DNA from: Spirochaetota bacterium
GTDB taxonomy: Bacteria > Spirochaetota > UBA4802 > JAFGDQ01
DNA: 64,000 nt
Reading direction: 5' to 3'
Assembly (NCBI GenBank): GCA_043803405.1
Contig: JAZDKB010000015.1
Coordinates: 174,780 to 238,779, forward strand
Shown here: one piece after another, positions 3,215 to 63,862 of the stretch
Layout of the letters: the number at the start of each line of letters is the position of its first letter
Position numbering within the stretch: position 1 is the stretch's first letter
The notes under the pieces: model-generated
Databases searched by the model: none
What the model was told of the DNA's origin: nothing
The model's input: only the letters and a program-made list of their open reading frames with translations
Program-made: the position numbers and the translations under genes

Positions 3215-6200
3215 TTATACTGCAGCATCGCAACGCAGACATCTGCTCGCTTCTTTAATTGCATCCTCTTTTGTAAATCCAAGCTCTACTTCTGCGAAAC
3301 TTAGTTTACGTGAAGCTGCTTCCAGTTCCGGCATAGCCATTTGCGGAGTTTCCACAGTTTCTTCATCTATAATTAGAGGAATTTCAATTCTTTCCAATGC
3401 AGGTTTTTCGAAAGCCGGTTCGCCGTTTGCAATGCGTATAGCTGAATCTATATCATCAGCAGCCTGATGCCCTGCCTGTATTGCCCCGATAACCGTATCC
3501 GGTCCGGTTTGTGCGTCACCGCCGGCAAAATAGCGCATATTGCTTGTGCGTGATTTATAACCGTTACCGACTTCGAAGTAATCCCACTTATTCACTACAT
3601 TGGCTATCTTCTTATCAAGGAAGCTCATATCCGCTACCTGTCCTACAGATGCTATAACTGCATCTACATTAAGCGTAAATTCCGAACCTTTAATGGCAAC
3701 GGGTTTTTTACGTCCGCTGTTATCGAATTCGCCTAGTTTCATACGCTCGCAGGTAATTGAGCTAACCTTGCCATCCTTCCCTTCTATTTTTAAAGGAGCT
3801 ACCAGATACTCTATCTTGATTCCTTCATGTTCGGCTGCTATGATTTCTTCCTCGGCTGCAGGCATATCCTGGCGCAGACGACGATAAATAATCGTTACTT
3901 CCGCTCCGAGACGAACTGCAACGCGGGCTGCGTCAATTGCAGAATTTCCACCGCCGACTACAGCAACTTTCTTTCCGAGAGTCTTTTCGCCCTTCATCCA
4001 TTTCTGCTCATCAGCATTGAATAAGCGCAGGAATTCCACACCGCCGTAAACATTTTTCAGGTCTTCGCCCGGTATTCCGAGTTTCTGGCTCTTATGAGCA
4101 CCTACTGCCAGGTAAACATAATCAAATTCCTTATCAATCTTCTCAAATGATATGTCGCGTCCGATGCGTGTATTTAGTTTTAATTCAACGCCAAGAGAGA
4201 TGACATCATCAATTTCTTTTTGCAGAATATTTCTCGGCAGCCTGTAAGAAGGTATGCCCCAGCGCATCATTCCGCCTGCATTGGGAAGTTCTTCAAAAAC
4301 AACAACCTGGTAACCGCGCTGAGCAAGGTCACGTGCAGCTGTAAGACCTGCCGGGCCTCCGCCAACAACAGCTATCTTTTCTTTCCTTGTAACAAGAATC
4401 TTTGCCGTTACCGGACGGTCAGCGTTATCCGAAATAAAGCGTTTTAAGAATTTAATTGCCAACGGCTCGTCAAGGTTACCGCGACGGCATTTGGACTGGC
4501 ATTTGTGATCGCATACTCTTCCGCAAACTGACGGAAAAGGATTGGATTGCAGCATAACTTTATATGCATCGCTGAATCTATCTTCTCTGATCAAAGCAAT
4601 ATACGATGGTATATCCATTTCAACAGGGCATGTATGCTGACATGGCGATTTAAACAACGCAGTACATACTGCTGCGCGGCAGGTATGTTCTCTGATGTGC
4701 TCTTCATATTCATCACGGAAATAGCGTATTGTACTTAAAACAGGATTCGGAGCTGTTTGGCCAAGACCGCAAAGAGCTGCATTTTTAATAACCTCAGCCA
4801 TTTCTTCCAGAAGTTCTATGTCTCCTTCTTTGCCCTTACCCTGGGTAATGTTCGTCAATATTTCAAGCATCCGCTTTGTGCCTTCACGGCATGGAGTACA
4901 TTTACCGCAGGATTCATCCTGGCAGAAATCCATAAAGAAACGCGCCATGTCTACAGCGCATTTATCTTCATTCATAACGATTAATCCGCCGGAACCCATA
5001 ATCGCTCCGAGTTCAACGACCTTTTCATAGTCAACAGGTGCATTCAAATGCTGAATCGGGATGCATCCGCCGGAAGGTCCGCCAAGCTGAGCAGCTTTGA
5101 ATTTCTTTCCTTTCGGTATACCGCCGCCGATATCGTATACAATTGTACCAAGGGTAGTTCCCATCGGTACTTCAACAAGACCTACGTTGGCAACGTCGCC
5201 GGTTAGCGCAAATACCTTTGTGCCTTTGCTCTTTTCTGTTCCGACTGATGCGTACCATTTTCCGCCGCGAACAATGATTTGTCCGATATTGGCTAATGTT
5301 TCAACATTATTCAAAATACTCGGTTTTTGCCACAGACCTGCAACAGCCGGGAATGGAGGCCTTGGTCTCGGCATACCGCGTTTTCCTTCAATTGAGGTCA
5401 TCAGGGCTGTTTCTTCACCGCAAACAAAAGCGCCTGCACCCTGATAAATCTCTAAATGAAAATCAAAACCGGTTCCTAAAATATTTTCTCCAAGCAATCC
5501 TGCTTCTTTTGCCTGGTCTATAGCAATGGTTAAACGGTGAATAGCTAAAGGATACTCAGCGCGGCAGTAAATATATCCCTGATGAGAGCCGATTGCTTTA
5601 GCTGCTATAACCATACCTTCAAGTACAGCATGTGGATCTGCTTCCAGAACGCTTCTGTCCATAAAAGCGCCCGGGTCACCTTCGTCTGCATTGCAAAGTA
5701 CATATTTAATGTCGTTTTTAGACTGCGCTGCAAATTTCCATTTCATTCCTGTCGGGAATCCTGCGCCGCCGCGTCCTCTTAGTCCGGACTCAAGAACCTC
5801 ATTAACGATTTGTTCCGGGGTCATTTCAGTAAGTGCTTTGGCCATGCCGGAATATCCGTCTCTGGCAATATACTCTTCTATCTTTTCAGGATCAATTAAT
5901 CCGCGATTTCTTAAAACTCTCAATTCCTGTAATGCGAAGAATGGAATATCCTGCATTGAAGGAATAACTTTGTCTGTAACAGGTTCTCTGTATAACAGGC
6001 GCTCTAAAATTCTTCCCTTTACCAAATGTTCTTCAACAAGTTCGGGAATATCTTCCGGTTTTATTGTTATATAAATAATACCTTCCGGATAAACAACCAT
6101 AATCGGCCCTAAAGCGCAAAAGCCGTTACAGCCGGTTTCAACAACCTTAATTTCCTCGGCTAAATTTCTTTTGCCTATTTCTTCTATTAAAGCTTTTTTA

Positions 6201-43900: not shown

Positions 43901-45136
43901 CGATGTCTCTGCAATGTTCGTGGATACAATTATCTTTCTTTTTGATATGGGGCTGAATATCTGTTTCTGCTGGCCGGCAGGCAGTCTTGAATAAAGAGGA
44001 AAAACCGCGAAATTATATTTATTCTTTTTTTGAAGCAGATCACATGTCTCGCGTATGTCCAGCTCCGTCGGCATAAATATGAGTATATCTCCGCCCGACG
44101 GGCATGGATGCCCTAGTGCAGGATGCGGACAGGATGTCCTCTTGTATCCTGCAGACGGGCAGGATGCCCTAGTGTCGAGTACGGTCACGGATGACTGTTT
44201 GTGTTCGACCGACGGGCAGGATGCCCTAGTGTCGGGCACGGTCACGGATGACCGTTTGTGCTCGAAAGACATATCTTCTCTTAATAAAGATAATGCCACG
44301 TCGGCTGCCTGTTCAATATAATCTGCCGGAATATTTTCTGCATCTTCAGCAGCATCGGTATACCGGACTTCAACTGGATACATTTTTCCAGATACTTCAA
44401 TAACAGGAGCATTGTTGAACGCCTTTGAGAACTTGTCCGTATCAATTGTCGCGGATGTTACAATGAGTTTAAGGTCCCTCCGCCTGGCAAGGAGCCTTTT
44501 CAATATTCCCAGTATAAAATCAATATTGATGCTTCTCTCATGCGCCTCGTCTACGATGATGGTATCATAAGCATTCAGGTACGGATCGCCTGCTGTCTCT
44601 GCGAGAAGGATGCCGTCGGTCATTATCTTAATGAATGAATTCTCCCCGGTCTTTTCATCAAAGCGAATTTTGTATCCGACTGAACTTCCGACTTCCTCTC
44701 CGAGTTCTTCCGCGATCCTGTTCGCAATGCTTATCGCGGCTATTCTTCTCGGCTGGGTGCAGCCTATAATGCCGTTTATGCCTCTTCCTGCAGCAAGACA
44801 GAACTTGGGCAGCTGCGTCGTCTTGCCAGATCCGGTCTCGCCGGATATAATTACAATATTATTAGTCCTGATAGCTTCTATTATTTCATCTTTTTTCGCG
44901 GTTATAGGAAGTTCCGGAATATAAGAGAATGCCGGGATGTTTTTTTTACGCCATTCTTTTTTCTGAATAGAAAAACTTATCTTTCTCTTGAGCCTAAGGA
45001 GCTTATTTTTATCTTCAGTTCCGGATTTATTTTTTCTGCTTTTATGAAGCAGACGCTTTAATTCTTTTCTAAAGCCGTACCTGTCCGGGCTCATCACTTG
45101 CGGAAGCAGCAATTCAAGTTGTTTATATGGATCCAT
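40967..45136 (-). CDS. hrpA: ATP-dependent RNA helicase HrpA, carrying a 57-aa repeat-derived insertion
   Basis: GETGSGKTTQ, TQPRR, DEAHER, SAT, TNIAETSLT and QRMGRCGR; long HrpA C-terminus. Confidence 0.93.
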   Translation of the reverse strand: MDPYKQLELLLPQVMSPDRYGFRKELKRLLHKSRKNKSGTEDKNKLLRLKRKISFSIQKKEWRKKNIPAFSYIPELPITAKKDEIIEAIRTNNIVIISGETGSGKTTQLPKFCLAAGRGINGIIGCTQPRRIAAISIANRIAEELGEEVGSSVGYKIRFDEKTGENSFIKIMTDGILLAETAGDPYLNAYDTIIVDEAHERSINIDFILGILKRLLARRRDLKLIVTSATIDTDKFSKAFNNAPVIEVSGKMYPVEVRYTDAAEDAENIPADYIEQAADVALSLLREDMSFEHKRSSVTVPDTRASCPSVEHKQSSVTVLDTRASCPSAGYKRTSCPHPALGHPCPSGGDILIFMPTELDIRETCDLLQKKNKYNFAVFPLYSRLPAGQQKQIFSPISKRKIIVSTNIAETSLTIPNISYVIDTGLARMSEYSPTSGIVSMPIKAISGSSADQRMGRCGRVREGVCIRLYAKEDYEGRDRFTKPEIFRTNLAEVILKMTALRLGDISLFPFIDKPKQQAITDGYNTLIELGAIRKEDNSFSLTDRGRIMAALPVDPRLSRMLIEAGERKCMSEVLAIASMLSVQDPRERPPGKENEADKKHAAFTDRSSDFITLLNIWNKFTDLYNDNASQNKIRKFCRENFISYNRMKDIREIHAQLSGTLEENGLTLKKAVKKKHRFIKEYDLLYNAIHKSILTGFLSNIANKKTNNLFIASKQREVVIFPGSGLFGRAKDWIVCAELVKTSLLFARTAANIKPDWLEELAGDLCEYSYRDPYWDREKGDVYASEQVTLYGLEIIRNRRVLYGRKNPEEACKVFIRDALIEDMFTEIGLDGTAYAGKTAELFQLGREFQFLQHNVELIKNFMRIEKRIRKKILISRDDLYMFYADHIHDAYNIGTLDSLIKKNRNDDFLCMNDEDMLSSLPDYNKLKEYPETISINNITLDLLYKFNPGSEDDGITLIIPVSVLQSININLIESAIPGLYREKITELIKNLPKQYRRYFIPAADSVEKIIREMPKGNPMIASLQKFIYEKYNIEIPNQEWPPEKLPDHLRLKLSIRDKNGIEITSGKDAGNIIRELTEKYKARAFNEIKNKWEKEDIREWDFGDLPEEIKTKNENGLQFVFYPGLRKENGKLSLRIFMDMETAAGSHKEAVAELTAKELSGQLNIIKNELDVPDELKSAVMLFGGLSSIREQYHKRMMSKNFYKDIRSKQDFINNIKMMRESLREHGVHLRLLLIDVLENYTTATDKLGILKLQNKAIKPNLVFLNKIKDELNILVPRDFLLVYDDNELASLGKYIKALAIRAERGCANLQKDIQKEKEILLFKDALDHEYNILTKTTSNEKKKALRTFFWLIEEYKISVFAPEIKSGIKISGKRLEQVLEEIRKMN
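44097..44267 (+). repeat. three tandem 57-bp GGA-hairpin modules inside hrpA
   Basis: Units 44097-44153, 44154-44210 and 44211-44267, each GAC-hairpin-TAGT-bulged hairpin; homologous to modules at 53.7-59.0 kb. Confidence 0.92.
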
Positions 45137-47403: not shown

Positions 47404-48726
47404 TTAAAACTTATGAGTAAACATAAAAATGGGAATTGCCATTGAAAGCACAGGCGCAGCATAATAGAGTCCGCGGTTATCACCGAAATATTCTGTAAAA
47501 TGATATTTCTTTGTAATGATTATCGCAGCAGGCACGCCGATGCATAAGCCTGCCACAATGCCCATCATTAATGACGCTGCTCCCTTTGCAAATCCGCTGG
47601 ATTTATCCAGGTTCATAAATAATTCATAGGCGATAAATGTAGTAATGCCAAAGAACAAAGCGCTTGTTGTTAAGTAAGTATTGAATTTTACCATGGGATT
47701 CGAATCGGGATTGTTCTTATATCTATGCTCATAACAATAGATAGATAACGAAATGTACATAAGGGACAGTGCGCCTGCAGTTACACATTCAAACATATTC
47801 TGTCTGAACTGCGATTTCTGTGCTACTTTTACTTCACTGTAAGCTTTATCCTGAACATTATCGCTTTTTTCTTTTAAGAATGATTCAACATCGTCGTTCC
47901 TGTTTAAAGCCGCGTAATATATTGCCGTCTTTTTATCGTTTGATAATAATTCGGCATCCGCGCCATGCTCAGCACCAAGCTTAACCAGTTTAAGGATTTC
48001 TTCTTTTGCTTCTGATGTATAATGATGTCCGCGGGAATGAACATTAGAAAGAATATGCAGCTGCGTAAAGCCGTCGCCCGGCCTTTGAATGTTCGCATCT
48101 GCCCCGTTATCCAGGAGGATACGGATTACATCTACTGAATCCTTAAACATGGCTTTCAATATTTTATAATACTTATCGTTTTCGCATTCGGATTTATAAA
48201 TATCGCGTATGCGCATCATTTCATCCATGCTGTGTACTGCCCTTTCCGTTGCAACATGCAGAGCTGTTCCAGCTTTCAGCTTATATTGGTCACCGCTGCT
48301 TACAGCATTTACTTTTGCACCCTGCTTTATAAGGAGTTCAGCAATGCGCGGCCGATGCCAGTACGCAGCAGCATGCAGCGGAGTCTGATTATCGTTTCCG
48401 TAAATATTTATCTTTGCGCCATGATCAATTAAAAGCTTTACCAGCTTTTCATTGCCGGAATATATTGCACCGAAAACAGGTGTACTGTCTTTTTCAAATA
48501 CTCCTGTATTTCTTTCGTTCACAGAAGCGCCCGATTTAAGCAGCCTGTTTGTCTCTTCAATATCCCCGCGTATGCATGCCTGGTAGAGCTGTGTTTCATC
48601 GTTATGTATCTGGGCAATGGAGTTATTTGGGAATAGCATGCAAACAAAAATAAATAAAGTATAACATACTGAGGCTATTATAATTCGTTTTGATTTCAGA
48701 AAAGATTTATTTGTATTCATGATCAA
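47404..48726 (-). CDS. exported ankyrin-repeat protein with C-terminal membrane domain
   Basis: Signal peptide, TPLHAAA/GA.VN repeats and a hydrophobic C-terminus. Confidence 0.85.
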   Translation of the reverse strand: MIMNTNKSFLKSKRIIIASVCYTLFIFVCMLFPNNSIAQIHNDETQLYQACIRGDIEETNRLLKSGASVNERNTGVFEKDSTPVFGAIYSGNEKLVKLLIDHGAKINIYGNDNQTPLHAAAYWHRPRIAELLIKQGAKVNAVSSGDQYKLKAGTALHVATERAVHSMDEMMRIRDIYKSECENDKYYKILKAMFKDSVDVIRILLDNGADANIQRPGDGFTQLHILSNVHSRGHHYTSEAKEEILKLVKLGAEHGADAELLSNDKKTAIYYAALNRNDDVESFLKEKSDNVQDKAYSEVKVAQKSQFRQNMFECVTAGALSLMYISLSIYCYEHRYKNNPDSNPMVKFNTYLTTSALFFGITTFIAYELFMNLDKSSGFAKGAASLMMGIVAGLCIGVPAAIIITKKYHFTEYFGDNRGLYYAAPVLSMAIPIFMFTHKF

Positions 48727-48906
48727 CAGTACCTTTTCACGATGTTTATTTTAATTTAAAATAAGCATTATTTAATTAGTTCTTGATGAATAATTCAGTT
48801 TAACACAGCAAAAGCATGGTTTTTCTCCCGCCTGCGGCGGGGGAAAGGGCATTGTTCACCAAAAAACTAATTAAATTTTCTACTTTAAATAATTCATTAT
48901 TAAGAA

Positions 48907-50166
48907 TCAAAAATGATATATTATTAATGGAATTAAAATTGAAGCAACAGGAGCAGAATAATAAAGCCCGCGGTTGTTCTTAAATGATTCACGATTATGA
49001 AAACCAATAATCCCACCTGCTACTCCGCCTGCAATACCACCGATAAGCATATACAGCTTACCTGTGTAGATACGGCCTATTGCAACACTAAAACCTCCTT
49101 CAACACCTGTAAAAGTATTAATTGCTACAGAAGCGCCGATAAGAGCACCTCCAAGAAATCCAATCGCGCCGCCTGTTACAACAGAATTAAAATTTCCCAT
49201 GGGATTATCGGCAGGATTGTCTTTATACCTGCTCTCTCTGAAATAAATCGTTAACCCTGTATAAATAAAAGGAATTGCAAGCAGTAAAGCATGCTCCCTT
49301 GTTGTTTTTAAACGCTCTCCAGTCCTGGCTGAATTGCTTTTACTCTTATACATTGCGATCTGATTGTTATCTTCAGAAGTAAGATTCATTCCATATTTTT
49401 TTATGCAATCAATAACTTCCTCATCTGACTCGTATTTAATGGCATATTGAAGCGGATTTATCCCTTTATCATTATTTATATGAACATCGGCTTTATTCTG
49501 AAGCAATAATTTAATTGCTTCAATATTTTCATAACGTACTGCTTCGTGCAGAGGAGTATATTTGTATTTAGTAGTATAATTGACCCTGGCCCCATTCTGG
49601 ATAAGCAATTTTGCCAGTTCCAGTTTTTCTTTTGAAAGCTTACCCTTATTGAAAATTATATACAGAGGGGTTTCATCCGAGTTATTTGCAGTATCAAAAG
49701 GAGCGCCTTTTTCTATTAAATATTTCGCAATTTCAAGATTGGAGTTCTTAAAAAAGTCTTTGTCAGAAAGGCTGTGAAGAAGAGTATCTCCAAATTTGTT
49801 TTTTATTTTAATATTTGCTCCATGATTATAAAGAAAATCCGTTATTTCATAACTGCTCTGCCCGTTATAAAGATGAATTGCATCATAAAGAGCTGTTTTG
49901 CCATAATAGTCGCGAAGATTTGGATCAGCTCCCTTTGATATAAGATATTTTACAACATGAAATTTGCCAAAAAGAACAGCAGTCTCAAGTAATGTACTTT
50001 CATTATAATTTTTAATATTTACATTCGTTCCTGATTCTATTAAATATTTTATCCTTTCAAGATTGCCATAGGCTGCTTCTTCAAAAATATTTCTTTCTTC
50101 TGCAATAAGACCTGTATTAAACACTATTATAATAACTGTTAAAATTAGATTGTTTTTTAATTTCAA
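48907..50166 (-). CDS. exported ankyrin-repeat protein with C-terminal membrane domain (paralog of 47404-48726)
   Basis: TTG start, ankyrin repeats and shared C-terminal motifs RYKxNPxxNPM and NRGLYYxAP. Confidence 0.85.
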   Translation of the reverse strand: MKLKNNLILTVIIIVFNTGLIAEERNIFEEAAYGNLERIKYLIESGTNVNIKNYNESTLLETAVLFGKFHVVKYLISKGADPNLRDYYGKTALYDAIHLYNGQSSYEITDFLYNHGANIKIKNKFGDTLLHSLSDKDFFKNSNLEIAKYLIEKGAPFDTANNSDETPLYIIFNKGKLSKEKLELAKLLIQNGARVNYTTKYKYTPLHEAVRYENIEAIKLLLQNKADVHINNDKGINPLQYAIKYESDEEVIDCIKKYGMNLTSEDNNQIAMYKSKSNSARTGERLKTTREHALLLAIPFIYTGLTIYFRESRYKDNPADNPMGNFNSVVTGGAIGFLGGALIGASVAINTFTGVEGGFSVAIGRIYTGKLYMLIGGIAGGVAGGIIGFHNRESFKNNRGLYYSAPVASILIPLIIYHF

Positions 50167-53196: not shown

Positions 53197-53442
53197 TTAA
53201 TCTGTAAGAAATGTGAACCGTAGGTTATAATGATTTAAATGATTGGAAAGGATTTTGGCACGGATGTCCATTTGTGCCTGACGCCATCCTTTCCATCCGC
53301 GGTTCAGACAACCAACAACGTGGGTGCTGTTATCAATTTTTTTATTAGGCTTATCAAGGCTGGTAAGAAGCTTATCTATCAAATCTGCTTTTTCTACAGG
53401 TTTCAGAGAAAGCGTGTCTTTGAGTAAATTATCCGTAAGCAT
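53197..53442 (-). pseudogene. truncated addiction-module antitoxin, no partner toxin
   Basis: The first ~37 aa (LSLKPVEKADLIDKLLTSLD) resemble 56685-56882; the expected W..E..R tail is replaced by unrelated sequence. Confidence 0.55.
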
Positions 53443-53564
53443 TGCTTTATCCTCTATCCGTTCTAAATAATTTTATTGATGATATTATTTATTATGAAAA
53501 TTGATTTTGTCAAGTTGTTTAGTTGAATGACATTATGAGATTATTTAATAATTGTATAACACCA

Positions 53565-53880
53565 CGCCCTTGCTCCTTCCATCGCCTTTCTGTTCCCGTT
53601 TACCGTTGCATTCGCCCTTGCTCCTTCCACGCGATTCATTTTACTCTGCGCATCTGCTAACGTGCAACCCGCGGCCGGCCAAAACGCGACAAGCATGGAT
53701 GCTTTAGTGCAGAGCGCAGGCAGGAGGCCTGTTTGCGCTCTGCCGACGTCCTGTCGCTTGGCCGGCATTAGGACATCCTGTCCGTCAAGCTCCGCTTGCT
53801 GACCTTTCGGCCTCCTGCCTCGGTCTGCATTCCTTACCTCCTGTAATTCGCGGAGAGGGGGGCGGATAGAGAGAAGTGTG
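53565..53880. repeat. intergenic repeat A, copy 1 (nested modules 53673-53786 plus extra 52-bp insert 53800-53851)
   Basis: Near-identical to 54456-54785, 57738-57996 and 58739-59062. Confidence 0.92.
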
Positions 53881-53923
53881 TGGGTAAAGTTTTTTTGCCT
53901 GTCAGGTGTTTGAAGATTTTTAT

Positions 53924-54151
53924 CTATGATTCAAATTCAGATCGCGGCAGGCCCGGCTGTCTAATTATAGACATCAGTGTTCCAATACGGATTTCTTTAT
54001 GATTAGGGACGGGTATAGTTATTGTAGAATCTGTTATTCTCTTTTGCATAAGAACATGGCTGCCGTGTGTTCTAATATAAACAAATCCATGTTTTTGCAG
54101 TATGCCGCAAACTTCCTTTCCTGAAAAAATTTTTAATTTACCCAACAGCAA
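53924..54151 (-). CDS. hicA: HicA-family toxin
   Basis: SGKEV..IL.K.GF...R..GSH...VPNHKEI..GTL.SI; start codon uncertain. Confidence 0.88.
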   Translation of the reverse strand: MLLGKLKIFSGKEVCGILQKHGFVYIRTHGSHVLMQKRITDSTITIPVPNHKEIRIGTLMSIIRQPGLPRSEFES

Positions 54152-54359
54152 CCTCTAACTGTGTTATGTAAATTTCTTCATGTAATCGTGTTTTAATTTC
54201 ATCAGGTGATGCGGCTTCAAAAAATAGTTCTAATGCTTCTTTTAAGTTATTTCTGGCTTCATCTACTGTATCTCCCTGGCTTGCTATATCTAACTCCGGG
54301 CACAGGGCAACGTAGCCGTTATCTTCTTTTTCAATAATTGCTGTAAGTTTTTTATTCAT
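54138..54359 (-). CDS. hicB: HicB-family antitoxin
   Basis: AIIEKE..GYVALCPEL..SQGDT.DEA..NLKEALEL. Confidence 0.9.
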   Translation of the reverse strand: MNKKLTAIIEKEDNGYVALCPELDIASQGDTVDEARNNLKEALELFFEAASPDEIKTRLHEEIYITQLEVAVG

Positions 54360-54455
54360 AGTATTCTTGCTCTTATGTTTATTTTTAACTTAACTATTAT
54401 TTACAGTTTGATAAATAGCAACAAATTTATTTAATAATTATTAACAACCACTCTT

Positions 54456-54785
54456 CCGCCCCTGCTGCTAACTCTGCCTTTTACGCGCCCGAAGCGTTTC
54501 TGCCCGCGAGCACCCCAACGCCCTTGCTCCGTTCGCTGCCTTTCTGATCCCGTTCATCGTTGCATTCGCCCTTGCTGCTTCCACGCGATTCGTAACACCT
54601 GGCGCATCTGCTAACGTGCATCCCGCGGCCGGCCAAAACGCGACAAGCATGGATGCTTTAGTGCAGAGCGCAGGCAGGAGGCCTGTTTGCGCTCTGCCGA
54701 CGTCCTGTCGCTTGGCCGGCATTAGGACACCCTGTCAGTCAAGCCCTGCTTGCGGAGAAGGGGGGCGGATAAAGAAAAGTGTGTG
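54456..54785. repeat. intergenic repeat A, copy 2 (nested modules 54627-54740)
   Basis: Direct alignment with the other A copies. Confidence 0.92.
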
Positions 54786-54898
54786 ATGTGTTCTTGTTTA
54801 CAGCACTGAATGTTTTATCCTTAGAGATGAAAGTTTCAAATAACATGTCTTTAATAAATTATAGATCTGCATGTTTTAATTCCTGATTGAATGAATTA

Positions 54899-56014
54899 TT
54901 ATACCGTCCATTCAAATAGCTTTTCAAAAAATTTTGTTGTTCTGTAAAAATGATTTCTGCTAAATATTTCGCGGCCTTCAGTTTTTTTCTCTACTAACCC
55001 GAAATACAAAGCAAAATTATTCAAAAACAGATAGGAAAAACCTGACTCAACAATTGATTGTTTATCTTCTTCATCAGATAATTCGTGAAGTATATACGGG
55101 AAAGCCAGGCCATATGCCTGAGCAAGCTCGACACCTGTTATAAACCCGGCAGCTTTTTTTCTGATCAGATGCAGATTGAAAACATATGATTGCTGCATAA
55201 ATCCGAAAGATTCCGGATATCTTGTGAGATAAAGCCAATTATATGAAGTTGCATAATAATGAAAAAGCATTTTATAGTTTTCATATATGTTGCTGTTTTT
55301 ATAGAGTTTTAAACCCTTTGCAGTAATTGTAAAAATATTGTGCTTTTTTTTCATTAGGCCTGAATTAGTAAAGAAAAAACGCATGGCCTCAATTTCTTTA
55401 ACCTCTGCTTCCATGCGGGGATTGATTTCATAAATCGAATCGTCTTTTATGAACTTTTTGTAGAATTCCTGAACGAGCTTTTGCGGGAAATTCCCTTTTT
55501 GTGTTGCTTTTATACCTTTTTCGCTTTCGGCCAGAGCATTAATAATATATTCAAACTGCCTGTATACCGGAGTTTCTTTTATGAGGTTTTCTTCTATTTC
55601 ATCCCTGAAATGGACAATCGGATTTTCCGAAAAATTATTTCGCAACACTGAACGCATTTGAGTAGAAGACAAACCGAGAAAATCGTCCTGAATTTTGCTG
55701 TTTGCGGCATTCATTTCTTTTTCCATAAATGCCTGCGCTTCATTTATATCATTGAATTCATGCTTCTCCATTTCATTTTTCATTTTATTAAGAACTTCCG
55801 TTGAGGGATTAGGCATGCCAAGGCTTTCCATTAAAGTTGGCACAGGACCGTTTCGCGTATCCCATTTAGCTACAAGTTCACCGTAATGCTCTATGCTATT
55901 TTCAATGCTTTTCTGCGCTGGAAAAGGAATGATATTATCATTCTTCAGACAGCAATGCTTGTACTTCTTCCCACTGCCGCACGGACATGGTTCATTTCTT
56001 CCGACTTTATTCAT
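54899..56014 (-). CDS. SEC-C motif protein
   Basis: N-terminal VGRNEPCPCGSGKKYKHCC; the remainder is uncharacterised. Confidence 0.8.
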   Translation of the reverse strand: MNKVGRNEPCPCGSGKKYKHCCLKNDNIIPFPAQKSIENSIEHYGELVAKWDTRNGPVPTLMESLGMPNPSTEVLNKMKNEMEKHEFNDINEAQAFMEKEMNAANSKIQDDFLGLSSTQMRSVLRNNFSENPIVHFRDEIEENLIKETPVYRQFEYIINALAESEKGIKATQKGNFPQKLVQEFYKKFIKDDSIYEINPRMEAEVKEIEAMRFFFTNSGLMKKKHNIFTITAKGLKLYKNSNIYENYKMLFHYYATSYNWLYLTRYPESFGFMQQSYVFNLHLIRKKAAGFITGVELAQAYGLAFPYILHELSDEEDKQSIVESGFSYLFLNNFALYFGLVEKKTEGREIFSRNHFYRTTKFFEKLFEWTV

Positions 56015-56177
56015 TAATGTTTTTCCAGAAATATTTAATAAGTTTTTGTATATTTACTTTTATTTTAAGACAATAATTAATTAAATAATATCAAGCGATT
56101 ATTATCCGGCTAGTGATTATAGACCTGTTTTTAACAAAATTATTACAGGTTATTCAGCCTTCTGTTTCACTACGCCA

Positions 56178-56369
56178 TTGCATTCGCCCCTGCTGCTTCC
56201 CTTGCCTCTCTGTTCATACCGGATGCTTGTCTGCAAATAACGGGAGCGACGGGCATGGATGCCCTAGTGTCGGACACGGACAGGAGGTCCGTTTGTGTCC
56301 GACCTACGTACGCGGTTCAATAACCCGGAGCGGTATCTACTCACGGAGCGGGGAGGGGCGGAGTGCGTA
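56178..56369. repeat. intergenic repeat B, copy 1 (57-bp module at 56248-56304)
   Basis: Aligns with 57512-57680 and 56957-57035; shares the CGCCCCTGCTGCTTCC start with repeat A segments. Confidence 0.9.
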
Positions 56370-56397
56370 TAGGGGGATTAGGTTACAACGAATGTCA

Positions 56398-56688
56398 TTA
56401 TTTCCTAGACTGCCAATACCATGGCTTTCTATGCATATGAGCTATTGCCCAGATTGTTACCATGTCTTTATCTATTGAAAACAATATTTTATATGGAAAT
56501 TTTGGAATGTATGCTTTATAAATATTATCTGCTTCTATTAAAAACCAATTGGGGTTTTTGATAATTTTTTTTATTTGAGTAATAACAGCTTTTTTAAATC
56601 TTTTTCCTAATCCTTCTGATTGATTTTCATACCAATCAATAGCATCATTAAATTCCTTGTTTGCTAGTTCATCTATACTAATCTTCAT
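56398..56688 (-). CDS. RelE/ParE-family toxin
   Basis: A..E...AI.WYE....LG.RF...KFPY.I......AIAH..RKP.YW. Confidence 0.88.
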   Translation of the reverse strand: MKISIDELANKEFNDAIDWYENQSEGLGKRFKKAVITQIKKIIKNPNWFLIEADNIYKAYIPKFPYKILFSIDKDMVTIWAIAHMHRKPWYWQSRK

Positions 56689-56882
56689 AAATATAGTTTT
56701 TCAAAATCAAGCAGCTTAGCTTTCCCTTCATTAACTGCTTTCATCCGTGATTTAACTTCAATAAGCCATGATTTGCGTATTTCTTCTTCTTCATGATCTA
56801 TGCTGGCAAGAATTAATTCTGCAAAGATCACTCGTTCATTTGGCGGCATTTCCAATGCTTTATCTAAAAGTCCTTTATCCAT
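56685..56882 (-). CDS. addiction-module antitoxin
   Basis: AL.MP..ER...AE..LAS.D......W..EV..R; GAGGAG RBS; 4-bp overlap with the toxin. Confidence 0.85.
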   Translation of the reverse strand: MDKGLLDKALEMPPNERVIFAELILASIDHEEEEIRKSWLIEVKSRMKAVNEGKAKLLDFEKLYL

Positions 56883-56956
56883 AATTATTTCTCCTCGTAT
56901 ATACTTTATATGTTACTCGGAACTTAAATTGCAACAAATTTTCTTTATTAAAATTG

Positions 56957-57100
56957 AATAACGGGAGCTACGTACGCGGTTCAATAACCCGGTGCGGTAT
57001 CTTCTCACAAAGCGGGGAGTGGCGTGGTGCGTAAAGATAGATTGGACGTAATTTATTAATTATTTGCTAAAACAATTTTCCCGTGCCTCTGCTGCTCCCC
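56957..57100. repeat. intergenic repeat B, copy 2 (partial, lacks the 57-bp module)
   Basis: AATAACGGGAGC|TACGTACGCGGTTCAATAACCCGG; 3' extension shared with 57680-57745. Confidence 0.85.
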
Positions 57101-57228
57101 CAATTAAACAAAATTATAACCGAACAATCATTTTTATTTCAGCTATTTTTAGCTGCATAACTTGGAAATTAACTAACACTTTAAATATAAATGAAAAATT
57201 GATCCAGATACTTTGATGTTAATTATCT

Positions 57229-57387
57229 CTAATCATTATCTTTAGGACATCCAAGAATGATGAGTTCTCCTGATGGAGTCTTAGTTACCAATCTCTGTTC
57301 ATTATAAATGGCATAATGGCAAAAAACATATCCATACTGATAGGATACATAAAGATTACACTTTTTACAATCTTCTAATAATTTCAT
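57229..57387 (-). CDS. 52-aa Cys-rich small protein (putative metal-binding)
   Basis: Manual translation: MKLLEDCKKCNLYVSYQYGYVFCHYAIYNEQRLVTKTPSGELIILGCPKDND*; same strand as the neighbouring cassettes. Confidence 0.5.
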   Translation of the reverse strand: MKLLEDCKKCNLYVSYQYGYVFCHYAIYNEQRLVTKTPSGELIILGCPKDND

Positions 57388-57511
57388 GATAGATCTTTCT
57401 TTTGAGTGTTTTTATTTTTTATAAGAGCATATTAACTAAAAGAAGCAATCTATATTTAATAAAAAGCAAGCAAATACATATGAAAATATTCCATAGCTTT
57501 TGCTTAAACCA

Positions 57512-57737
57512 CGCCCCTGCTGCTTCCTTAGCCTCTCTGCGCATACCGAACGCTTGTCTGCAAATAACGGGAGCGACGGGCACGGATGCCCTAGTGTCGG
57601 ACACGGACAGGAGGTCCGTTTGTGTCCGACCTACGCACACGCTTCAATAACCCGGAGCGGTATCTTCTCACGGAGCGGGGTACGTAAAGAGAGATTTGAT
57701 CTAATTTATTAATTATTTGCTAAAACAATTCTCCCAA
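57512..57737. repeat. intergenic repeat B, copy 3 (57-bp module at 57575-57631)
   Basis: Aligns with 56185-56355. Confidence 0.9.
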
Positions 57738-57996
57738 CGCCCCTGCTCCTTTTGCCGCCTTTCTGCTCCCGTTCGCCGTTGCATTCGCCCTTGCTGTTTC
57801 CGCGCGATTCATAACACTTGGCACATCTGCTAACGTGCATCCCGCGGCCGGCCAAAACGCGACAAGCATGGATGCTTTAGTGCAGAGCGCAGGCAGGAGG
57901 CCTGTTTGCGCTCTGCCGACGTCCTGTCGCATAGCCGGCATTAGGACATCCTGTCCGTCAAGCTCCGCTTGCGGAGAGGGGGAGGGTGGATAGAGA
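57738..57996. repeat. intergenic repeat A, copy 3 (nested modules 57846-57959)
   Basis: Direct alignment with the other A copies. Confidence 0.92.
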
Positions 57997-58022
57997 AAAC
58001 AATATAGAAGTAATTGAAAGTT

Positions 58023-58364
58023 TTATTTGGTAATTCCGATAAGAGACTCAACAACTTTTCTTAATTCGGGTATATGGAGTTTAATGGTTTCACTGATTAT
58101 TTTAATATCAATATCTTCGTAGCCATGAACTATTCTATTGCGGAGGCCGATAATTTTGGAACTTGGCAATTCATTTAAAATATTTGTATTTTCAATTTTA
58201 TTAACTGCTTCACCGATCTGAGTGATACACATCATTATTGCATATTCGCCCTCAATATCAGAAAGAGTCTTCTCAATTGTGCCATGTTTTTCAACAATAA
58301 TGTTAATATCACTGATATATTTTAATATCAATTCCAATTTGGCAAGATCGCTTCTTTTAAACAT
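58023..58364 (-). CDS. HepT-like (DUF86/HEPN) RNase toxin
   Basis: QIGEA and the RNRIVHGY (RX4HXY) motif. Confidence 0.88.
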   Translation of the reverse strand: MFKRSDLAKLELILKYISDINIIVEKHGTIEKTLSDIEGEYAIMMCITQIGEAVNKIENTNILNELPSSKIIGLRNRIVHGYEDIDIKIISETIKLHIPELRKVVESLIGITK

Positions 58365-58665
58365 ACATAACTTCCGGGAGAATATATTTCTTGCCTATCT
58401 CATTTAATGCATTTTTATTCGCCAGATCAATTTCCATTCCGAGCTCTTTTTTAAATTCTTTTTCTATCTGCTCAATTACCGGTATTACATCCCAACCCGG
58501 ATATTTTTTATAAAAGCTGTCAGTCATTTCATACAATATATCAATATCGCTATTTTCGGTTTCTTCTCCGCGTACGTATGAGCCGAAGACACCAAGGATT
58601 ATAAAACCCTCAGGTTCGTATTTGCTCTTTAAATTTTTTATTTTATTTATTACTGTAGTATTCAT
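58357..58665 (-). CDS. MntA-like minimal nucleotidyltransferase antitoxin
   Basis: VFGSYVRGE....SDIDIL; overlaps the HEPN gene. Confidence 0.88.
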   Translation of the reverse strand: MNTTVINKIKNLKSKYEPEGFIILGVFGSYVRGEETENSDIDILYEMTDSFYKKYPGWDVIPVIEQIEKEFKKELGMEIDLANKNALNEIGKKYILPEVMYV

Positions 58666-58738
58666 ATTTTAAACTTAATTTATTCAATTTACATGTACTA
58701 ATACTTAAAAATAATTTTTGTCAAGTTGTTTAATCATA

Positions 58739-59062
58739 CCGCCCCTGCTGCTAACTATACCTTTTGCGCGCTCCGAAGCGTTTCTGCCCGCGAGCACCCC
58801 AACGCCATTGCTCCTTTCGCCGCCTTTCTGTTCCCGTTTGCCGTTGCATTCGCCCTTGCTGCTTCCATGCGATTCATAACACCTGGCGCATCTACTAACG
58901 TGCATCCCGCGGCCGGCCAAAACGCGACAAGCACGGATGCTTTAGTGCAGAGCGCAGGCAGGAGGCCTGTTTGCGCTCTGCCGACGTCCTGTCGCTTGGC
59001 CGGCATTAGGACGTCCTGTCCGTCAAGCTCCGCTTGCGGGGAAGGGGGCGGATAGAGAGAAG
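58739..59062. repeat. intergenic repeat A, copy 4 (nested modules 58911-59024)
   Basis: Direct alignment with the other A copies; ends 7 bp from the hsdR stop. Confidence 0.92.
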
Positions 59063-59068
59063 AATGCT

Positions 59069-62000
59069 TTATGGGACTTCCGTCAGTTCATCTGCTATCA
59101 GCTCAGCCTGTTTTAGAACTGTTTCTGTTGCAAGCTTCTGCATATCCGGCGGATAGCCGTACTGGCGCAGTATGCGTTTAACTATGACTTTTAGTTTTGC
59201 TTTTACGCTTTCTTTAATTGTCCAGTCAATGGAAGCATTCTCTTTTACTTTCTGAAAAAGGACAACAGCAAGCTCCCTTAGCTTATCCTGCTCCATTACT
59301 TTTCTTGCGCTTTCATTGTTTGCAATAGCAGTATAAAACGCATATTCCTGCTCGGACAAATTCATTTCTTCAGCTGCTTTGTCCATGCTCTTTATTTCTT
59401 TTGAAAGTTCTATGAGTTCTTCTATTACTTCTGCAGCAGTAAGAATTTTATTGTGGTATTTCTTAATGGAATTTTCCAGCATTTCCATGAGCGTCTTGCC
59501 CTGAACAAGGTTTTTCTTAACTCTGGATTTAATTTCATCATCAAGCAGTTTCCTCAGGGTTTCAAGAGCGATGTTCTTATGCTCCATGTTCTTGACTTCG
59601 AGCAAAAACTCTTCAGAAAGAATTGAAATGTCGGGTTTCTTAATACCTGCTGCATCGAATACATCTATGACTTTTTCTGTAACAAGGGCTTTGTCAATTA
59701 CCTGATGAATTGCTGTCTCGATTTCATCGTCGGTAAAACCGGAACCGGTGCTGTCGAACTTGGCGAGTCTTGATTTCACTGCCTGGAAAAAGGCTACTTC
59801 GTCTTTAACATCCATTGCCTGTTCATGCGGGATTGCAATAGCAAATGCTCTGGATAGCGCTGTCACTTGATCTATGTATCTCTTCCTGCCGTCATCTATT
59901 GTGAGTATATGCTCTTCAGCAGAAAGAATAAGCGAGAGCTTCCTTCCTGTTTCAGCTTCAAAATAGTCCTCGTAAGCAAATCCATGAAACATCTGGGAAA
60001 CGACTTCAAGCTTTTCAAGCATAAGCTGTACTGCCTGTTCCTGTGCAACGGCCGGGTCGCCTTTGCCGCCGGAGTTGGAATAGAAAGAAAGAGCTTCTTT
60101 AAGGTCGGATGCTATTCCAAGATAATCTACTATTAGGCCGCCTTCTTTATCCTTGTACACACGGTTAACGCGAGCAATTGCCTGCATCAGGTTATGGCCT
60201 TTCATGGGCTTATCAATGTATAGAGTATGGAGCGATGGAACATCGAAACCAGTCAGCCACATATCGCATACAACCACTATCTTTAAATCATCTTCGGGAT
60301 CTTTCATGCGATCTGCTAGAGTTCTGCGCTGATCTTTAGTGGTGTGATGCCTGGAGATTTCAGGACCGTCGGATGAAGCTGAGGTCATTACTACTTTTAT
60401 TGTGCCTTTGCTGAGTTCTTTGTTGTGCCATTCTGGTCTTAATTTAATTATTTCATCATATAGTTTAGCAGCTATACGACGTGACATGGTTACTATCATT
60501 GCCTTGCCGTCTATAACTTCCTGACGAAGTTCAAAATGAGTAACAATATCTTTTGCTATTTTTTTAATGCGATCTTCGCTGCCAACAAGGGCTTCAAGCT
60601 GTGTCCATTTCGCTTTTTCTTTTTGCGTTACGCTTAGTTCATCTCCCAGCTCATCATCGAGTTCCTTAACCAGTTCTTTTCCTTTATCACTGAGATTAAT
60701 CTTTGCAAGCCTGCTTTCGTAATAGATGCGAACAGTTGCGCCGTCCTCTACTGACTGAGCAATATCGTAAACATCAACATAGTTGCCGAATACTGCCGGT
60801 GTATTAATATCTGTCTTTTCTATTGGTGTGCCGGTAAATCCCAGGTACGTTGCATTGGGCAATGCGTCGCGCATATACTTTGCAAAACCATAGACGATTT
60901 TTTTTCCTATAACATTTCTGTTTTCATCTTTAACATCAATATGTTTTGCGCTAAATCCGTATTGCGTTCTATGCGCTTCGTCTGCAATAACAATGATGTT
61001 TCTGCGGTCAGACATCTTTTCAAAAACATTGCCTTCTTCCGGCTGGAACTTTTGAATAGTGGTAAACACAACTCCGCCGGATGCAACCTTCAGGAGTTCT
61101 TTCAGGTGATCTCTATTTTCTGCTTGAACGGGCTCTTGCCTTAACAGCTGTTTCGATGCTGCAAACGTATCGAATAACTGATCGTCCAGATCATTGCGGT
61201 CTGTAATTACAACGATTGTGGGATTATCCATTACGAGAACAATTTTACCGGTGTAGAAAACCATTGAGAGCGACTTGCCGCTCCCCTGCGTGTGCCAGAC
61301 TACGCCGCCTTTTTTATCGCCAACAGGTTGCGAGTAAACGCCGGGAACTCCGTAGCTTTTCGGGTCTTGTGCTACCATGAAGGTGGGATTATCTTTCTTT
61401 GTGTTTGCAACATATCCCGACGCCCTGAGCGTTGATTCTACTGCACGGTTTACTGCGTAATACTGATGATATCCTGCTAATTTCTTTTCTATTTGAATAA
61501 ATGTCTGTCTGGTTACTTTATCTTCCTTTTTCGATTCTTCGAATACTATGAAATGGCGGATCAGATCAAGTAGCGTTTTCTTTGTCAGCATTCCTTTTAT
61601 CAGAGTTTCCAGCTGGCCTATAAGAGTTGAGGCTTCTGTTTTTCCGTCTGAGGTTTTCCATGCCATGAATCTGCTTAAACCTGAGGAGATTGTGCCTGCT
61701 TTTGCTTCTAACCCGTCGGAAATTATCAGAAAGCCATTGTACGTAAAAAGAGTCGGTATTGCCTGTTTATATGTCTGGAGCTGCTTAAAGGCGGAATGTA
61801 CTGTGGCGTTTTCATCAGCGGGATTTTTTAGTTCTATCACGACAAGGGGCAATCCATTTATATACAGGATTACATCCGGTCGTTTGTTAACGTGGTTTTC
61901 AATTACTGTTAACTGGTTAAGTACAGTAAAGTCATTGTTTTCCGGGTCGTTAAAATCTACAAGCCAGACAAGATCGCCGCGGCTGTTGCCGCCTTTCTGG

Positions 62001-62302
62001 TATGTTACATTGATTCCCTCGGTCAGCATTCTATGAAAGGTTTCGTTATTATTAATGAGTTCAGGTGAATTGATGCGTTGTAATTGTTTTATGGCGTCGT
62101 CACGGATATCTGCAGGGATTTTAGGATTGATTCTGGCAATGGCTCTTTTGAGTTTATCGGGCAATAGAACTTCTTCAAAGGATTTGCGGGCAGGGGTTTC
62201 GCTGTCTGGGGCAATATCCGGGCCGTATATGTAACTGTAGCCTTGTTTTTCAAGGAGGGCAATGGAGTATTGTTCGATGGAGGATTCGGTGATTTTATGC
62301 AT
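59069..62302 (-). CDS. hsdR: type I restriction endonuclease subunit R
   Basis: PD...INGLPLVVIELK nuclease motif, HTQGSGKS, DEAHR, FTGTP, LTGFD and QAIARVNR. Confidence 0.95.
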   Translation of the reverse strand: MHKITESSIEQYSIALLEKQGYSYIYGPDIAPDSETPARKSFEEVLLPDKLKRAIARINPKIPADIRDDAIKQLQRINSPELINNNETFHRMLTEGINVTYQKGGNSRGDLVWLVDFNDPENNDFTVLNQLTVIENHVNKRPDVILYINGLPLVVIELKNPADENATVHSAFKQLQTYKQAIPTLFTYNGFLIISDGLEAKAGTISSGLSRFMAWKTSDGKTEASTLIGQLETLIKGMLTKKTLLDLIRHFIVFEESKKEDKVTRQTFIQIEKKLAGYHQYYAVNRAVESTLRASGYVANTKKDNPTFMVAQDPKSYGVPGVYSQPVGDKKGGVVWHTQGSGKSLSMVFYTGKIVLVMDNPTIVVITDRNDLDDQLFDTFAASKQLLRQEPVQAENRDHLKELLKVASGGVVFTTIQKFQPEEGNVFEKMSDRRNIIVIADEAHRTQYGFSAKHIDVKDENRNVIGKKIVYGFAKYMRDALPNATYLGFTGTPIEKTDINTPAVFGNYVDVYDIAQSVEDGATVRIYYESRLAKINLSDKGKELVKELDDELGDELSVTQKEKAKWTQLEALVGSEDRIKKIAKDIVTHFELRQEVIDGKAMIVTMSRRIAAKLYDEIIKLRPEWHNKELSKGTIKVVMTSASSDGPEISRHHTTKDQRRTLADRMKDPEDDLKIVVVCDMWLTGFDVPSLHTLYIDKPMKGHNLMQAIARVNRVYKDKEGGLIVDYLGIASDLKEALSFYSNSGGKGDPAVAQEQAVQLMLEKLEVVSQMFHGFAYEDYFEAETGRKLSLILSAEEHILTIDDGRKRYIDQVTALSRAFAIAIPHEQAMDVKDEVAFFQAVKSRLAKFDSTGSGFTDDEIETAIHQVIDKALVTEKVIDVFDAAGIKKPDISILSEEFLLEVKNMEHKNIALETLRKLLDDEIKSRVKKNLVQGKTLMEMLENSIKKYHNKILTAAEVIEELIELSKEIKSMDKAAEEMNLSEQEYAFYTAIANNESARKVMEQDKLRELAVVLFQKVKENASIDWTIKESVKAKLKVIVKRILRQYGYPPDMQKLATETVLKQAELIADELTEVP

Positions 62303-62303
62303 G

Positions 62304-63862
62304 TTAATTGCTTGTTATTAACTTCTCAACAATTTGAAATATTGGCTCAAAATATCTAAAATCACTTTTTATAAAGTTACTTGTTGAATTTGCAAAAGCT
62401 GATTTTTTTTCATCCTTGATTTTTATTATTCTTCCACCACCAGGAATTTCAATTTCTTCAGTAAAACCATGTAGTTTAGAATCATCAAACAGTAATTCTA
62501 TACATAATCTAGATGCTTTCCCATAAGATTGTTTAGCATAGTCAGTCCGGTGTGCAGGGACTGGCAGTAAGAAAACATAACCTTTATGTTTTTTATGTTT
62601 TGCTAGAAGACCTTTTTGCGAATCATTTTCAATTTGCTCCCAGACTTTATCGTTATTATTTTTCTGTTCTAGTAATTTATTCCAATTTTCAAATGCTTCA
62701 TCAAAATCTAGCATACCTAAAAATATATTGTTTCTATTATTTCTAAAAATGTCGCCTCTTAGAAAAGTATTTCCTATGAAAGATCTATCAAATGCTTGTT
62801 GAATTTTAAATGGAATTTTACTGCCATTTTTCAATTTATTCCAAGCGTTTTCCAAAATTATCTTATCTGTTGGTCCTTCAATAAATAATACCGGTTTAGT
62901 TTCATTCTTTAAGTCATTTATCGTCTCTAATAATAAAGAATTTTCTTCTAATTTTTCTTTAATATAAGGTGAAATTATATGTAAGAGTCCCATGTCTTTA
63001 TCAATATTTTTTATTTCATTCGGATCAATTTTAGTAAATTCCGTAATACTATTATCTACATTTTTTAAGGTATTATACATTATGGTTTCTTTCTGATTTT
63101 TCCCTATTGTATAAAAAGCAGGTGAATGTGTAGTAAGAAAAATTTGTATGTAATCTGAATAGTTTTCAAAATTTTTTGCCAATTCGAATGCTTGGAACAT
63201 TTCCAAATTATTTTCAGGTTCTTCGTAACCCCAAATAGTATCACTTCTCACAGCACCTTTCGCGTGGTGAATCCGTTCTTTTTCAGCCAAAAATTTCAAT
63301 ATTACAGGAACATGTCTTACTTTTATTCCATCGCCTCTATGTTTTAAAGAAATAGTCCGTCCTGTTATCTGGGTCTCAAAATCAAGAATTGAGAATATAG
63401 TCGAAAGATCTTCTGGTAACTGAATTTTACTTTCAAACGAAAGTTTTTCTAATAATTCTCTCGATAAAAGATCTGTGTGGTGTCTAATTTCATTAACAAA
63501 ATTAGTACCTGCTGTTTGCAAGTCAGACTTTAATACTGAATATAATGTCTCGTATAATTTTTTTAAAAGTTCACTAAAGTAATCATTTCCTTTAATCGCT
63601 GGAACATAATGGAATTGAAGCCTTTTTAACCATAGTTTAACTCTTGATCTATCAGTTATTGCAGAACCATTTGCATATTTAGTTACTTCACTATACAATC
63701 CGATTTCACGCCACTTTTTAATCCATATTATTTTTTTTGAATGTCCTTTAAATGTATCCGGTGGAGTAAGGAAAATACGAATTTCAATCTCTTTTGCTTT
63801 ATGTTTCTTGGTAACTGTAAATTTTGAATAATCTGTTTCAAAATTATATTTTTGTCCTAAAT
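62304..63862 (-). pseudogene. ABC/AAA ATPase-TOPRIM (OLD-like) gene, 5' end cut off by IS256 insertion
   Basis: RGDG, YEEPENNL, LTTHSP, TOPRIM FIEGPTD and LDFD. The frame stays open past 63698 (LGQKYNFETDYSKF...) up to the IS end, with no Walker A inside the window. Confidence 0.75.

Follow-up and report, generated by a model that had tools for sequence, protein, structure and literature searches.

A repeat-spaced array of toxin-antitoxin and other small genes behind a spirochaete type I restriction gene, distinct from integrons

In T4-type phages, the genes of promoter early stem-loop (PeSL) cassettes are shuffled by homologous recombination between intergenic repeats, according to the relevant parts of PMC2839356; a further source on these cassettes is PMC4122927. 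For the Bacillaceae-1 RNA motif, the section of PMC4333381 devoted to it points to a likeness between the reverse strand and CsrA sites. Here we describe an array of toxin-antitoxin and other small genes that invites comparison with both. It follows an hsdR gene in a stretch of 64,000 nucleotides (hereafter the window) from a Spirochaetota bacterium (assembly GCA_043803405.1, contig JAZDKB010000015.1, positions 174,780 to 238,779 of the forward strand). An earlier note on this DNA had taken the array for an undescribed cassette-capture or shuffling locus in a defence island, with structured repeats acting as recombination or insertion sites.

The array is real and is not an integron, and it is probably not the product of a new recombinase system. 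With a probability of roughly 0.55, we consider it the tail of a defence island in which RecA-type recombination and gene conversion between patchwork repeats, themselves multiplied locally, add, remove and exchange modules, with no dedicated recombinase. Read on the minus strand from the hsdR stop codon, the order is repeat A4, MntA/HepT, A3, a linker with B3, a gene for a 52-aa protein, a repeat remnant with linker and B2, antitoxin/ParE, B1, a SEC-C protein, A2, HicB/HicA, A1 and a broken antitoxin gene (Table 1). All array genes share the minus strand, and direct repeats, of one family or chimeric, flank each module. Open reading frames and Pfam matches gave the same order, orientation and gene identities as the earlier note. 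The genes have a GC content of 28–39% and the six larger repeats one of 57–61%. The setting in a defence island is borne out by the type I restriction endonuclease next to the array, called by PADLOC.

The genome (3.98 Mb, 39% GC, 94% complete) is a bin of 54 contigs, and the window is the final 64 kb of contig C15. At least three local repeat loci were found in only four of 150 random 10-kb windows of this genome, and all four overlapped the array or one of two sister clusters; by this control the array is more than chance. Full copies of A were found in the array only. B occurs three more times at C19:70836-72502, and six related elements, named C, lie at C21:12201-24099. Together with A-like arms in an Rhs/DUF559 region of contig C10, the A, B and C repeats make up a single component; of its 15 loci, spread over 4 contigs, 14 fall in these three clusters. 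The repeats keep to clusters and are not strewn across ordinary intergenic DNA, whereas the genome's other hairpin families are dispersed (29 copies on 15 contigs, 27 on 18 and 21 on 13; a further family has 11 copies). All three clusters hold antitoxin/ParE-type modules, and the one on C19 comes after a Hachiman-like helicase. Besides its purine-rich A-like arms, the C10 region (C10:137600-144685) carries Rhs fragments and genes downstream of them, two genes for DUF559 proteins and a toxin-antitoxin-like pair in inverted arrangement; it is possibly a fourth repeat-spaced cluster.

The long elements are private to the species. A had matches in 13 of 60 relatives through its short units only, C in none of 60, and B gave weak linker matches in 6 of 150. 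Scans of genome and metagenome collections with exact patterns for B and C returned nothing, or one chance match inside a coding gene; one further exact pattern matched 0 of 91 loci, own copies included, and is uninformative. Viral matches to a 16-mer (n = 40) were dismissed, none extending past 28 nt. A DNA search of five same-family genomes did not recover the island.

The content between the repeats does vary, as expected of a shuffling locus, both in the paralogous C19 cluster and in a contig of a related strain. The antitoxin/ParE module with its flanks is 91.5% identical over 612 nt to C19:70990-71601, and the window's last module, the broken antitoxin, has an intact paralog on C19 (88.5% over 226 nt). 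On C19 the antitoxin/ParE module is followed directly by this second antitoxin module, with a clipped B repeat between them. At the matching point the window holds B1-SEC-C-A2-HicBA-A1, a 3.4-kb block absent from C19. In the related strain (about 90–95% alike, run X3), the right end of a B repeat is joined to the linker and B2, and the 52-aa gene is absent (two records, depth 2.6 and 5.1). One C21 element is a chimera of a B head and a C body. The 52-aa module is homologous to its copy on contig C36 from about 25 nt away from B3 to a point about 80 nt short of the next repeat. Module borders are ragged, not fixed, and no fixed crossover site was found. recA is present in the genome. Among the contigs of run X2, a joint 53536-56979 was rejected as a deletion, the intervening letters matching the C19 cluster of the same organism, and an opposite-strand joint at 53244/53296, present in one contig at depth 2, was disregarded because it may be a fold-back.

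Inspection of the repeats revealed a patchwork. The A family consists of four copies of a 276-nt block, 82–94% identical to the reference copy, and the B family of a 169-nt pair at 93% identity and a 79-nt block in three copies. The earlier description of the repeats as GC-rich is correct, but the length given, 150–330 bp, does not hold for B2, which measures only about 90 nt plus a 25-nt AT-rich linker. Each A comprises a purine-rich arm of at least 112 nt and a 114-nt core, and the core consists of two 57-nt units, one inserted reversed within the other. B1 and B3 hold one 57-nt unit each, whereas B2 has the same head with the unit absent. Compared with shuffled sequences, the A core folds strongly (z −5.3 to −7.6), as do the nested 57-nt units (z −3.9 to −7.6); arms and B head fold no better than shuffles (z 0.55 to 1.7), and whole-element folding of A4 is not significant (z −1.2 and −1.8). 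The word structured is therefore apt for the nested units but not for the arms or the B head. The ends of A elements share inverted matches of only 7–11 nt, and neither an empty site nor a target site duplication was found for A, B or C. By eye, B was compared with group II intron domain V and the arms with attC or hsdS ends; these likenesses are unsupported for the array (for attC, by profile). A reading frame through repeat A is open in all four copies, with no homolog beyond them (lengths 46–147 searched), and was taken as non-coding.

Among the four A copies, 6 of 114 sites vary in the nested core and 27 of 112 in the arm (Fisher P = 5e-5). That the cores are more alike than the arms fits conversion or selection. 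Furthermore, three informative sites yield three different groupings of the copies, as expected from conversion between them.

Under the proposed exchange, direct repeats of 90–330 nt would offer enough homology for a bracketed module to pop out and re-integrate, and each swap would leave chimeric repeats behind, such as B1 (B/A) and the B-head/C-body element on C21. Toxin-antitoxin modules would accumulate by resisting deletion once in place, and hairpin units would keep landing in the repeats as neutral targets. Loss of toxin-antitoxin modules is penalised, and they would therefore be retained.

The layout recurs in relatives. The array's hsdR type is encoded in 19 of 121 other genomes of the order, and in none of six same-family genomes, which are incomplete bins. 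Downstream DNA was analysed for 20 of the 23 non-self hsdR matches (one without downstream DNA and the two weakest were omitted). Two of these 20 loci have 5 and 7 local repeat loci, two others have 2, and sixteen have none. In genome G084 the order is hsdR, repeats, GIY-YIG, repeats, DUF433/DUF5615, repeats, antitoxin/PIN, repeats, MntA/HepT, repeats and a tRNA-like sequence (the last by eye). In G034 the same SEC-C gene is found among repeat-spaced small genes behind the same hsdR type. In both G034 and G084 the layout comes with unrelated repeat sequences. Twenty arbitrary 10-kb windows from each of these genomes held at most two repeat loci in one genome and three in the other, and the array repeats were absent from them. 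Homologs of the SEC-C protein occur in 9 of 40 relatives, often in type I restriction-modification loci. In the G084 array a 90-nt module is repeated at L140:32-121 and 3473-3562; its translation, by eye, reads like what we take to be the C-terminal end of HsdS, which suggests that gene-end fragments become repeat modules.

HepT loci had local direct repeats in 5 of 30 cases (the best 30, one per genome, one of them our own), against 4 of 318 control windows of 3.3 kb; the nominal P of 3e-4 is overstated by kinship. The five repeat-bearing loci are clusters or modules of toxin-antitoxin genes; each has a repeat sequence of its own, and one has an IS256-type transposase inside. Several of these repeats presumably belong to the hairpin or short-tandem families usually found with GIY-YIG, DUF559 and GxxExxY genes. 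Loci of the 52-aa family had local direct repeats in none of 14 cases.

Several observations weigh against shuffling by ordinary recombination. In the C21 cluster, related repeats flank large ordinary genes in both orientations, which fits passive spread equally well. The A arms differ at 10–19 of 112 nt, which would slow RecA exchange, and the conserved A core could reflect selection on hairpins instead of conversion. The X3 joins could derive from another locus of that strain. Among the low-depth contigs of the strain runs, neither circles nor same-strain deletions were seen, nor the back-joints of mini-circles. The sixteen hsdR loci without local repeats count on the same side, nine of the 20 stretches being shorter than 6 kb, and in the HepT comparison the kin are not independent and the controls come from three genomes only. 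Finally, a linked recombinase upstream of hsdR is possible, as the DNA there is unassembled.

The next most probable reading, which we consider rather unlikely, is passive: toxin-antitoxin genes and selfish hairpin repeats may have piled up independently in a permissive spot, where local tandem duplications multiplied any repeat present; the repeats would then be a record of history and do little shuffling. This accretion would agree with the many other hairpin families of the genome, and with two congeners in which the same antitoxins adjoin GTAG-type palindromes or a CRISPR array instead. A second copy of the 52-aa gene (79% aa identity, contig C36) lacks A/B repeats, several toxin-antitoxin loci of the genome are located outside the three clusters, and dead modules are present (the truncated antitoxin of the window and a stop codon in the C19 ParE gene). 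However, the alternation of one module with one repeat, the uniform orientation and the chimeric repeats are easier to explain with exchange at the repeats, and so are the C19 and X3 differences that end at repeats and the enrichment of repeats at HepT loci.

The 57-nt unit has 22 profile matches in the 3.98-Mb genome, eight within the array and several intragenic. Two dispersed repeat families have empty and filled versions that differ by exactly this piece. Filled alleles lie at C36:26457-26578, C44:26912-27033 and C41:30175-30285, and empty alleles occur 5–8 times elsewhere; in the filled alleles the unit sits in a hairpin loop, after CG. An otherwise intact HrpA of 1389 aa has three tandem units within its helicase core (Table 1). 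Another is in frame near the start of a RAYT-like gene (C18:117748-117804), which scores below the NCBIfam cut-off and is flanked by GTAG palindromes, repeats of another kind; yet another lies in an Rhs fragment whose paralogous fragment is empty. The units have TCC loops, usually end in GTCG and insert mostly after CG; they carry no terminal inverted repeats, and the junction shares just 2–4 nt. Their stems covary, with two-sided changes at 11 of 18 pairs among eight copies and none of 500 shuffles as high, the structure being drawn from the same eight sequences so that the controls lean in its favour. The unit reached 19.9 bits (E 3.6) against the Rfam family Bacillaceae-1 (RF01690), under the gathering score of 35, and the window has no Rfam match at gathering level. 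A profile search in 108 loci of relatives recovered three full-length units only. The unit is mobile and dispersed rather than a site peculiar to the array; with its presence in hrpA and other genes, the structured part of the repeats is not specific to the array.

The idea of a dedicated system, with the repeats as its structured sites for recombination or insertion, is unsupported: the folding part is dispersed, the borders are ragged, the layout recurs with unrelated, species-private repeats and no recombinase gene travels with the arrays. Eight queries, four of them tyrosine recombinases, on 36 stretches of relatives revealed no tyrosine recombinase adjoining any repeat-spaced array, and two loci with tyrosine recombinase matches had no local repeats scored downstream of hsdR. 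A broad form of the idea, which we regard as improbable, would credit the spirochaetes of this order with an integron-like system of defence cassettes that needs no integrons: a hairpin mosaic of any sort, once locally amplified, would serve as a spacer, RAYT, DUF559 or GIY-YIG proteins would nick it for capture and excision, and the frame-preserving 57-nt micro-element would be the smallest mobile unit.

Slightly less probable still is the narrower version, a cassette system independent of integrase that would capture and excise modules through cuts made at the repeats by a small hairpin-cutting nuclease of the RAYT, DUF559 or GIY-YIG type, or by another recombinase. Almost all right ends of the elements stop at one short purine-rich motif, which also recurs internally, and the 57-nt unit inserts precisely. 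Furthermore, RAYT, DUF559 and GIY-YIG genes are present in the source genome and in restriction-modification islands of relatives, and a GIY-YIG gene is itself a module of the G084 array. None of these genes, however, lies in the array, and from lineage to lineage the repeats have no sequence in common. Nor is the end motif restricted to the clusters (10 of 24 genome copies of the 10-mer); the borders are not fixed, and the arms are unstructured.

The absence of an integrase, as claimed before, is true of contig C15, but the genome has a full integron elsewhere. Its IntI is encoded on C9 (TIGR02249, 454 bits, cut-off 265) and is followed by cassettes with 130-nt attC sites. The complete integron spans C9:269625-282264 and continues on C10; its cassettes lie downstream of intI and a companion gene encoding 127 aa. 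The first cassette encodes a protein of 1885 aa with a weak Avs1b match, a group II intron interrupts an attC, and an IS110 gene lies at C10:3444. A relaxed attC rule scan, which replaced a stricter one that had missed the genome's real attC sites, gave no match in the array against two in the true integron, and no array element has both R boxes. A profile of eight own attC sites gave 27 matches at E up to 10, none of them on C15. The spacers of the array are not attC, in line with the earlier remark that they lack its layout. Five tyrosine recombinases are encoded in the genome, none on C15; searches of that contig for genes of tyrosine or serine recombinases and of IS110 or Y1 transposases came back empty, the region upstream of hsdR being unassembled. 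A serine resolvase was not found in the 94%-complete genome, and an IS91/Y2 transposase query had no match in it, though this is uninformative, as the positive control also matched nothing.

A decayed integron array, or cassettes placed by IntI at secondary sites and since stripped of their attC by overwriting, is accordingly very improbable. In its favour are the IntI and attC sites on several contigs of the genome, and a decayed attC without R boxes at C21:12481-12670 (E 4.5e-11), directly behind a C-type repeat, a hint that the repeat clusters have been in contact with the integron pool. A toxin-antitoxin cargo and genes that all face one way are also typical of integrons, as far as PMC4889954 treats them. 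Against it stand the silence of rule scan and own-attC profile on the contig and the missing R boxes. That mis-assembly of the metagenome bin created the alternation is scarcely credible: the array lies near a contig end of a 54-contig bin and no strain-run contig spans it whole, but the repeat copies differ by many substitutions, parallel arrays exist in other genomes, and contigs of runs X1 and X2, which may be source runs and hence not independent, cross repeat-gene junctions with 0 differences (e.g. 53464-53723, 54607-54817 and 57895-58045).

Promoter-like boxes had been suggested upstream of the genes; their overall number is not enriched (21 against 17.1 ± 4.8 in shuffles, one of them an 11/12 site at 53513). 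The reported recurrence of TTTGTCAAGTTGTTT at 53506 and 58717 was confirmed, with no promoter-like site called at the 58717 copy. The TTGACA box is common to only two units and lies outside the GC-rich repeat. Terminator-like sites number 4 in the array against 5.7 in shuffles, and the strand of the genes has none. At 53257-53282, within the promoter-like region and broken antitoxin gene, there is a truncated hairpin unit.

Contig C15 ends 4.9 kb upstream of the array. Genes for hsdM and hsdS were not found anywhere in the assembly, in which the DNA upstream of hsdR is missing. The gene directly upstream of hsdR (62304-63698, 464 aa) has weak AAA_21/AriA/GajA matches and is probably what the contig end has left of an ATPase-nuclease defence gene, namely its 3' part. 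The 52-aa family has a homolog in 25 of 40 relatives, with up to 5 copies per genome, and its neighbours in the Atlas are unannotated, some of them viral. At 47404-50166, between EF-P/FHA genes and a flavodoxin gene, are two neighbouring ankyrin-like membrane proteins with similar C-terminal tails; no full-length match to this pair was found in congeners.

Table 1. Features of the array and its surroundings, in window coordinates.
Feature	Position	Strand	Remarks
Three tandem 57-nt units in hrpA	44096..44266	-	In frame, 57 residues added
Promoter-like region and broken antitoxin gene	53197..53555	-	TTGACA site at 53513; antitoxin ends after ~38 codons, toxin lost; weak Pfam Unstab_antitox
Repeat A1	53562..53876	-	Nested core 53674-53787; additional 51-nt TCC-loop hairpin inserted at 53800-53850
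HicA toxin, ~75 aa	53924..54151	-	Pfam HicA_toxin E 7e-17
Short HicB antitoxin, 73 aa	54138..54359	-	Weak Pfam HicB_lk_antitox below cut-off; pairs with HicA
Repeat A2	54455..54778	-	Nested core 54628-54741
SEC-C motif/Y4jL-like protein, 371 aa	54899..56014	-	Pfam SEC-C; Atlas
Repeat B1	56160..56385	-	One 57-nt unit (56247-56303); final 40 nt A-type, i.e. B/A chimera
ParE/RelE-family toxin, 96 aa	56398..56688	-	Pfam ParE_toxin
Addiction-module antitoxin, 65 aa	56685..56882	-	Pfam Unstab_antitox E 6e-12
Repeat right-end remnant (57083-57101), linker (57051-57075) and repeat B2	56960..57101	-	B2 is head only, without 57-nt unit
52-aa four-Cys protein	57229..57387	-	Unnamed family; no Pfam match
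25-nt AT-rich linker (57704-57728) and repeat B3	57508..57728	-	B3 with one 57-nt unit (57574-57630)
Repeat A3	57736..58000	-	Nested core 57847-57960
HepT-type HEPN toxin, 113 aa	58023..58364	-	Pfam HepT-like E 2e-16; RNRIVH motif in translation
MntA-type nucleotidyltransferase antitoxin, 102 aa	58357..58665	-	Pfam NTP_transf_2 E 6e-9
Repeat A4	58738..59062	-	Purine-rich unstructured arm and 114-nt core (two nested 57-nt units, 58912-59025)
hsdR, type I restriction endonuclease	59069..62302	-	Pfam HSDR_N, T1RH-like_C; PADLOC REase_I; array begins at hsdR stop codon

Integron-like toxin-antitoxin arrays without attC or integrase thus arise repeatedly in one bacterial order from unrelated repeats, which suggests that defence islands have here a general way of acquiring and losing small modules. 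Such arrays are invisible to tools of the IntegronFinder type and to homology searches with the spacers. No description of them in spirochaetes was found in the literature searched (largely open-access papers, main texts), and the architecture is apparently recurrent and little described. Ordinary recombination is most likely the mechanism, which limits the surprise. Material for tests is at hand in the genome's pair of paralogous arrays, one of which lacks a repeat-bounded block of 3.4 kb, and in a mobile 57-nt hairpin with empty and filled alleles.

Among the known systems, integrons and attC clusters that have no integron-integrase (CALIN) resemble the array in their small co-oriented genes, one spacer per module and toxin-antitoxin-rich cargo, as described in part of PMC4889954. 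They differ in that the array has no R/L-box attC or similarity to the genome's own attC and no intI or attI on the contig, and its modules seem to carry their own upstream AT-rich regions. The 57-nt unit shares with Bacillaceae-1 and Rickettsia-type palindromic elements two TCC-loop hairpins (the reverse strand reading like CsrA sites) and in-frame insertion into proteins, in the respective passages of PMC4333381 and PMC3184786; it stays under the Rfam threshold, has empty and filled sites in one genome, and is distinguished by its fixed length of 57 nt (19 codons) and its nesting.

Repetitive extragenic palindromes (REP), the bacterial interspersed mosaic elements (BIME) built from them and GTAG/CGTC palindromes are likewise GC-rich hairpin units that form mosaics of modules, occur in coding regions and are found at plastic or toxin-antitoxin loci, as far as covered in PMC3184786, the source of the ccdO157 example, and in PMC3733652. 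Short GC-rich palindromic units in mosaics are present here too, without the high-copy extragenic dispersal: A, B and C have 14 loci in three clusters, and the 57-nt unit has 22 matches, several of them intragenic. In contrast to REP/BIME, the A, B and C elements are few, locally clustered, species-private and mostly unstructured, and the 57-nt unit is not a simple GTAG-tagged palindrome.

With PeSL cassettes, in the account of PMC2839356, the array has in common direct repeats of about 100 nt or longer between small co-oriented accessory genes, gain and loss that leave a chimeric repeat, and, in the proposed reading, homologous recombination with no integrase. Here too direct repeats bracket accessory genes, with presence or absence between them (in the paralogous cluster and in two low-depth strain contigs). 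The conserved sigma70 promoter and the terminator stem-loop of the PeSL repeat are lacking in the array repeats; the promoter of the array, a candidate only, lies mostly outside the repeat, and mini-circles are a feature of PeSL. Further differences are the bacterial chromosomal location, the GC-rich, longer repeats derived from nested mobile hairpins, and the cargo of toxin-antitoxin modules. By this analogy, the array would work like PeSL shuffling, assembled from REP/BIME-like parts without their dispersal.

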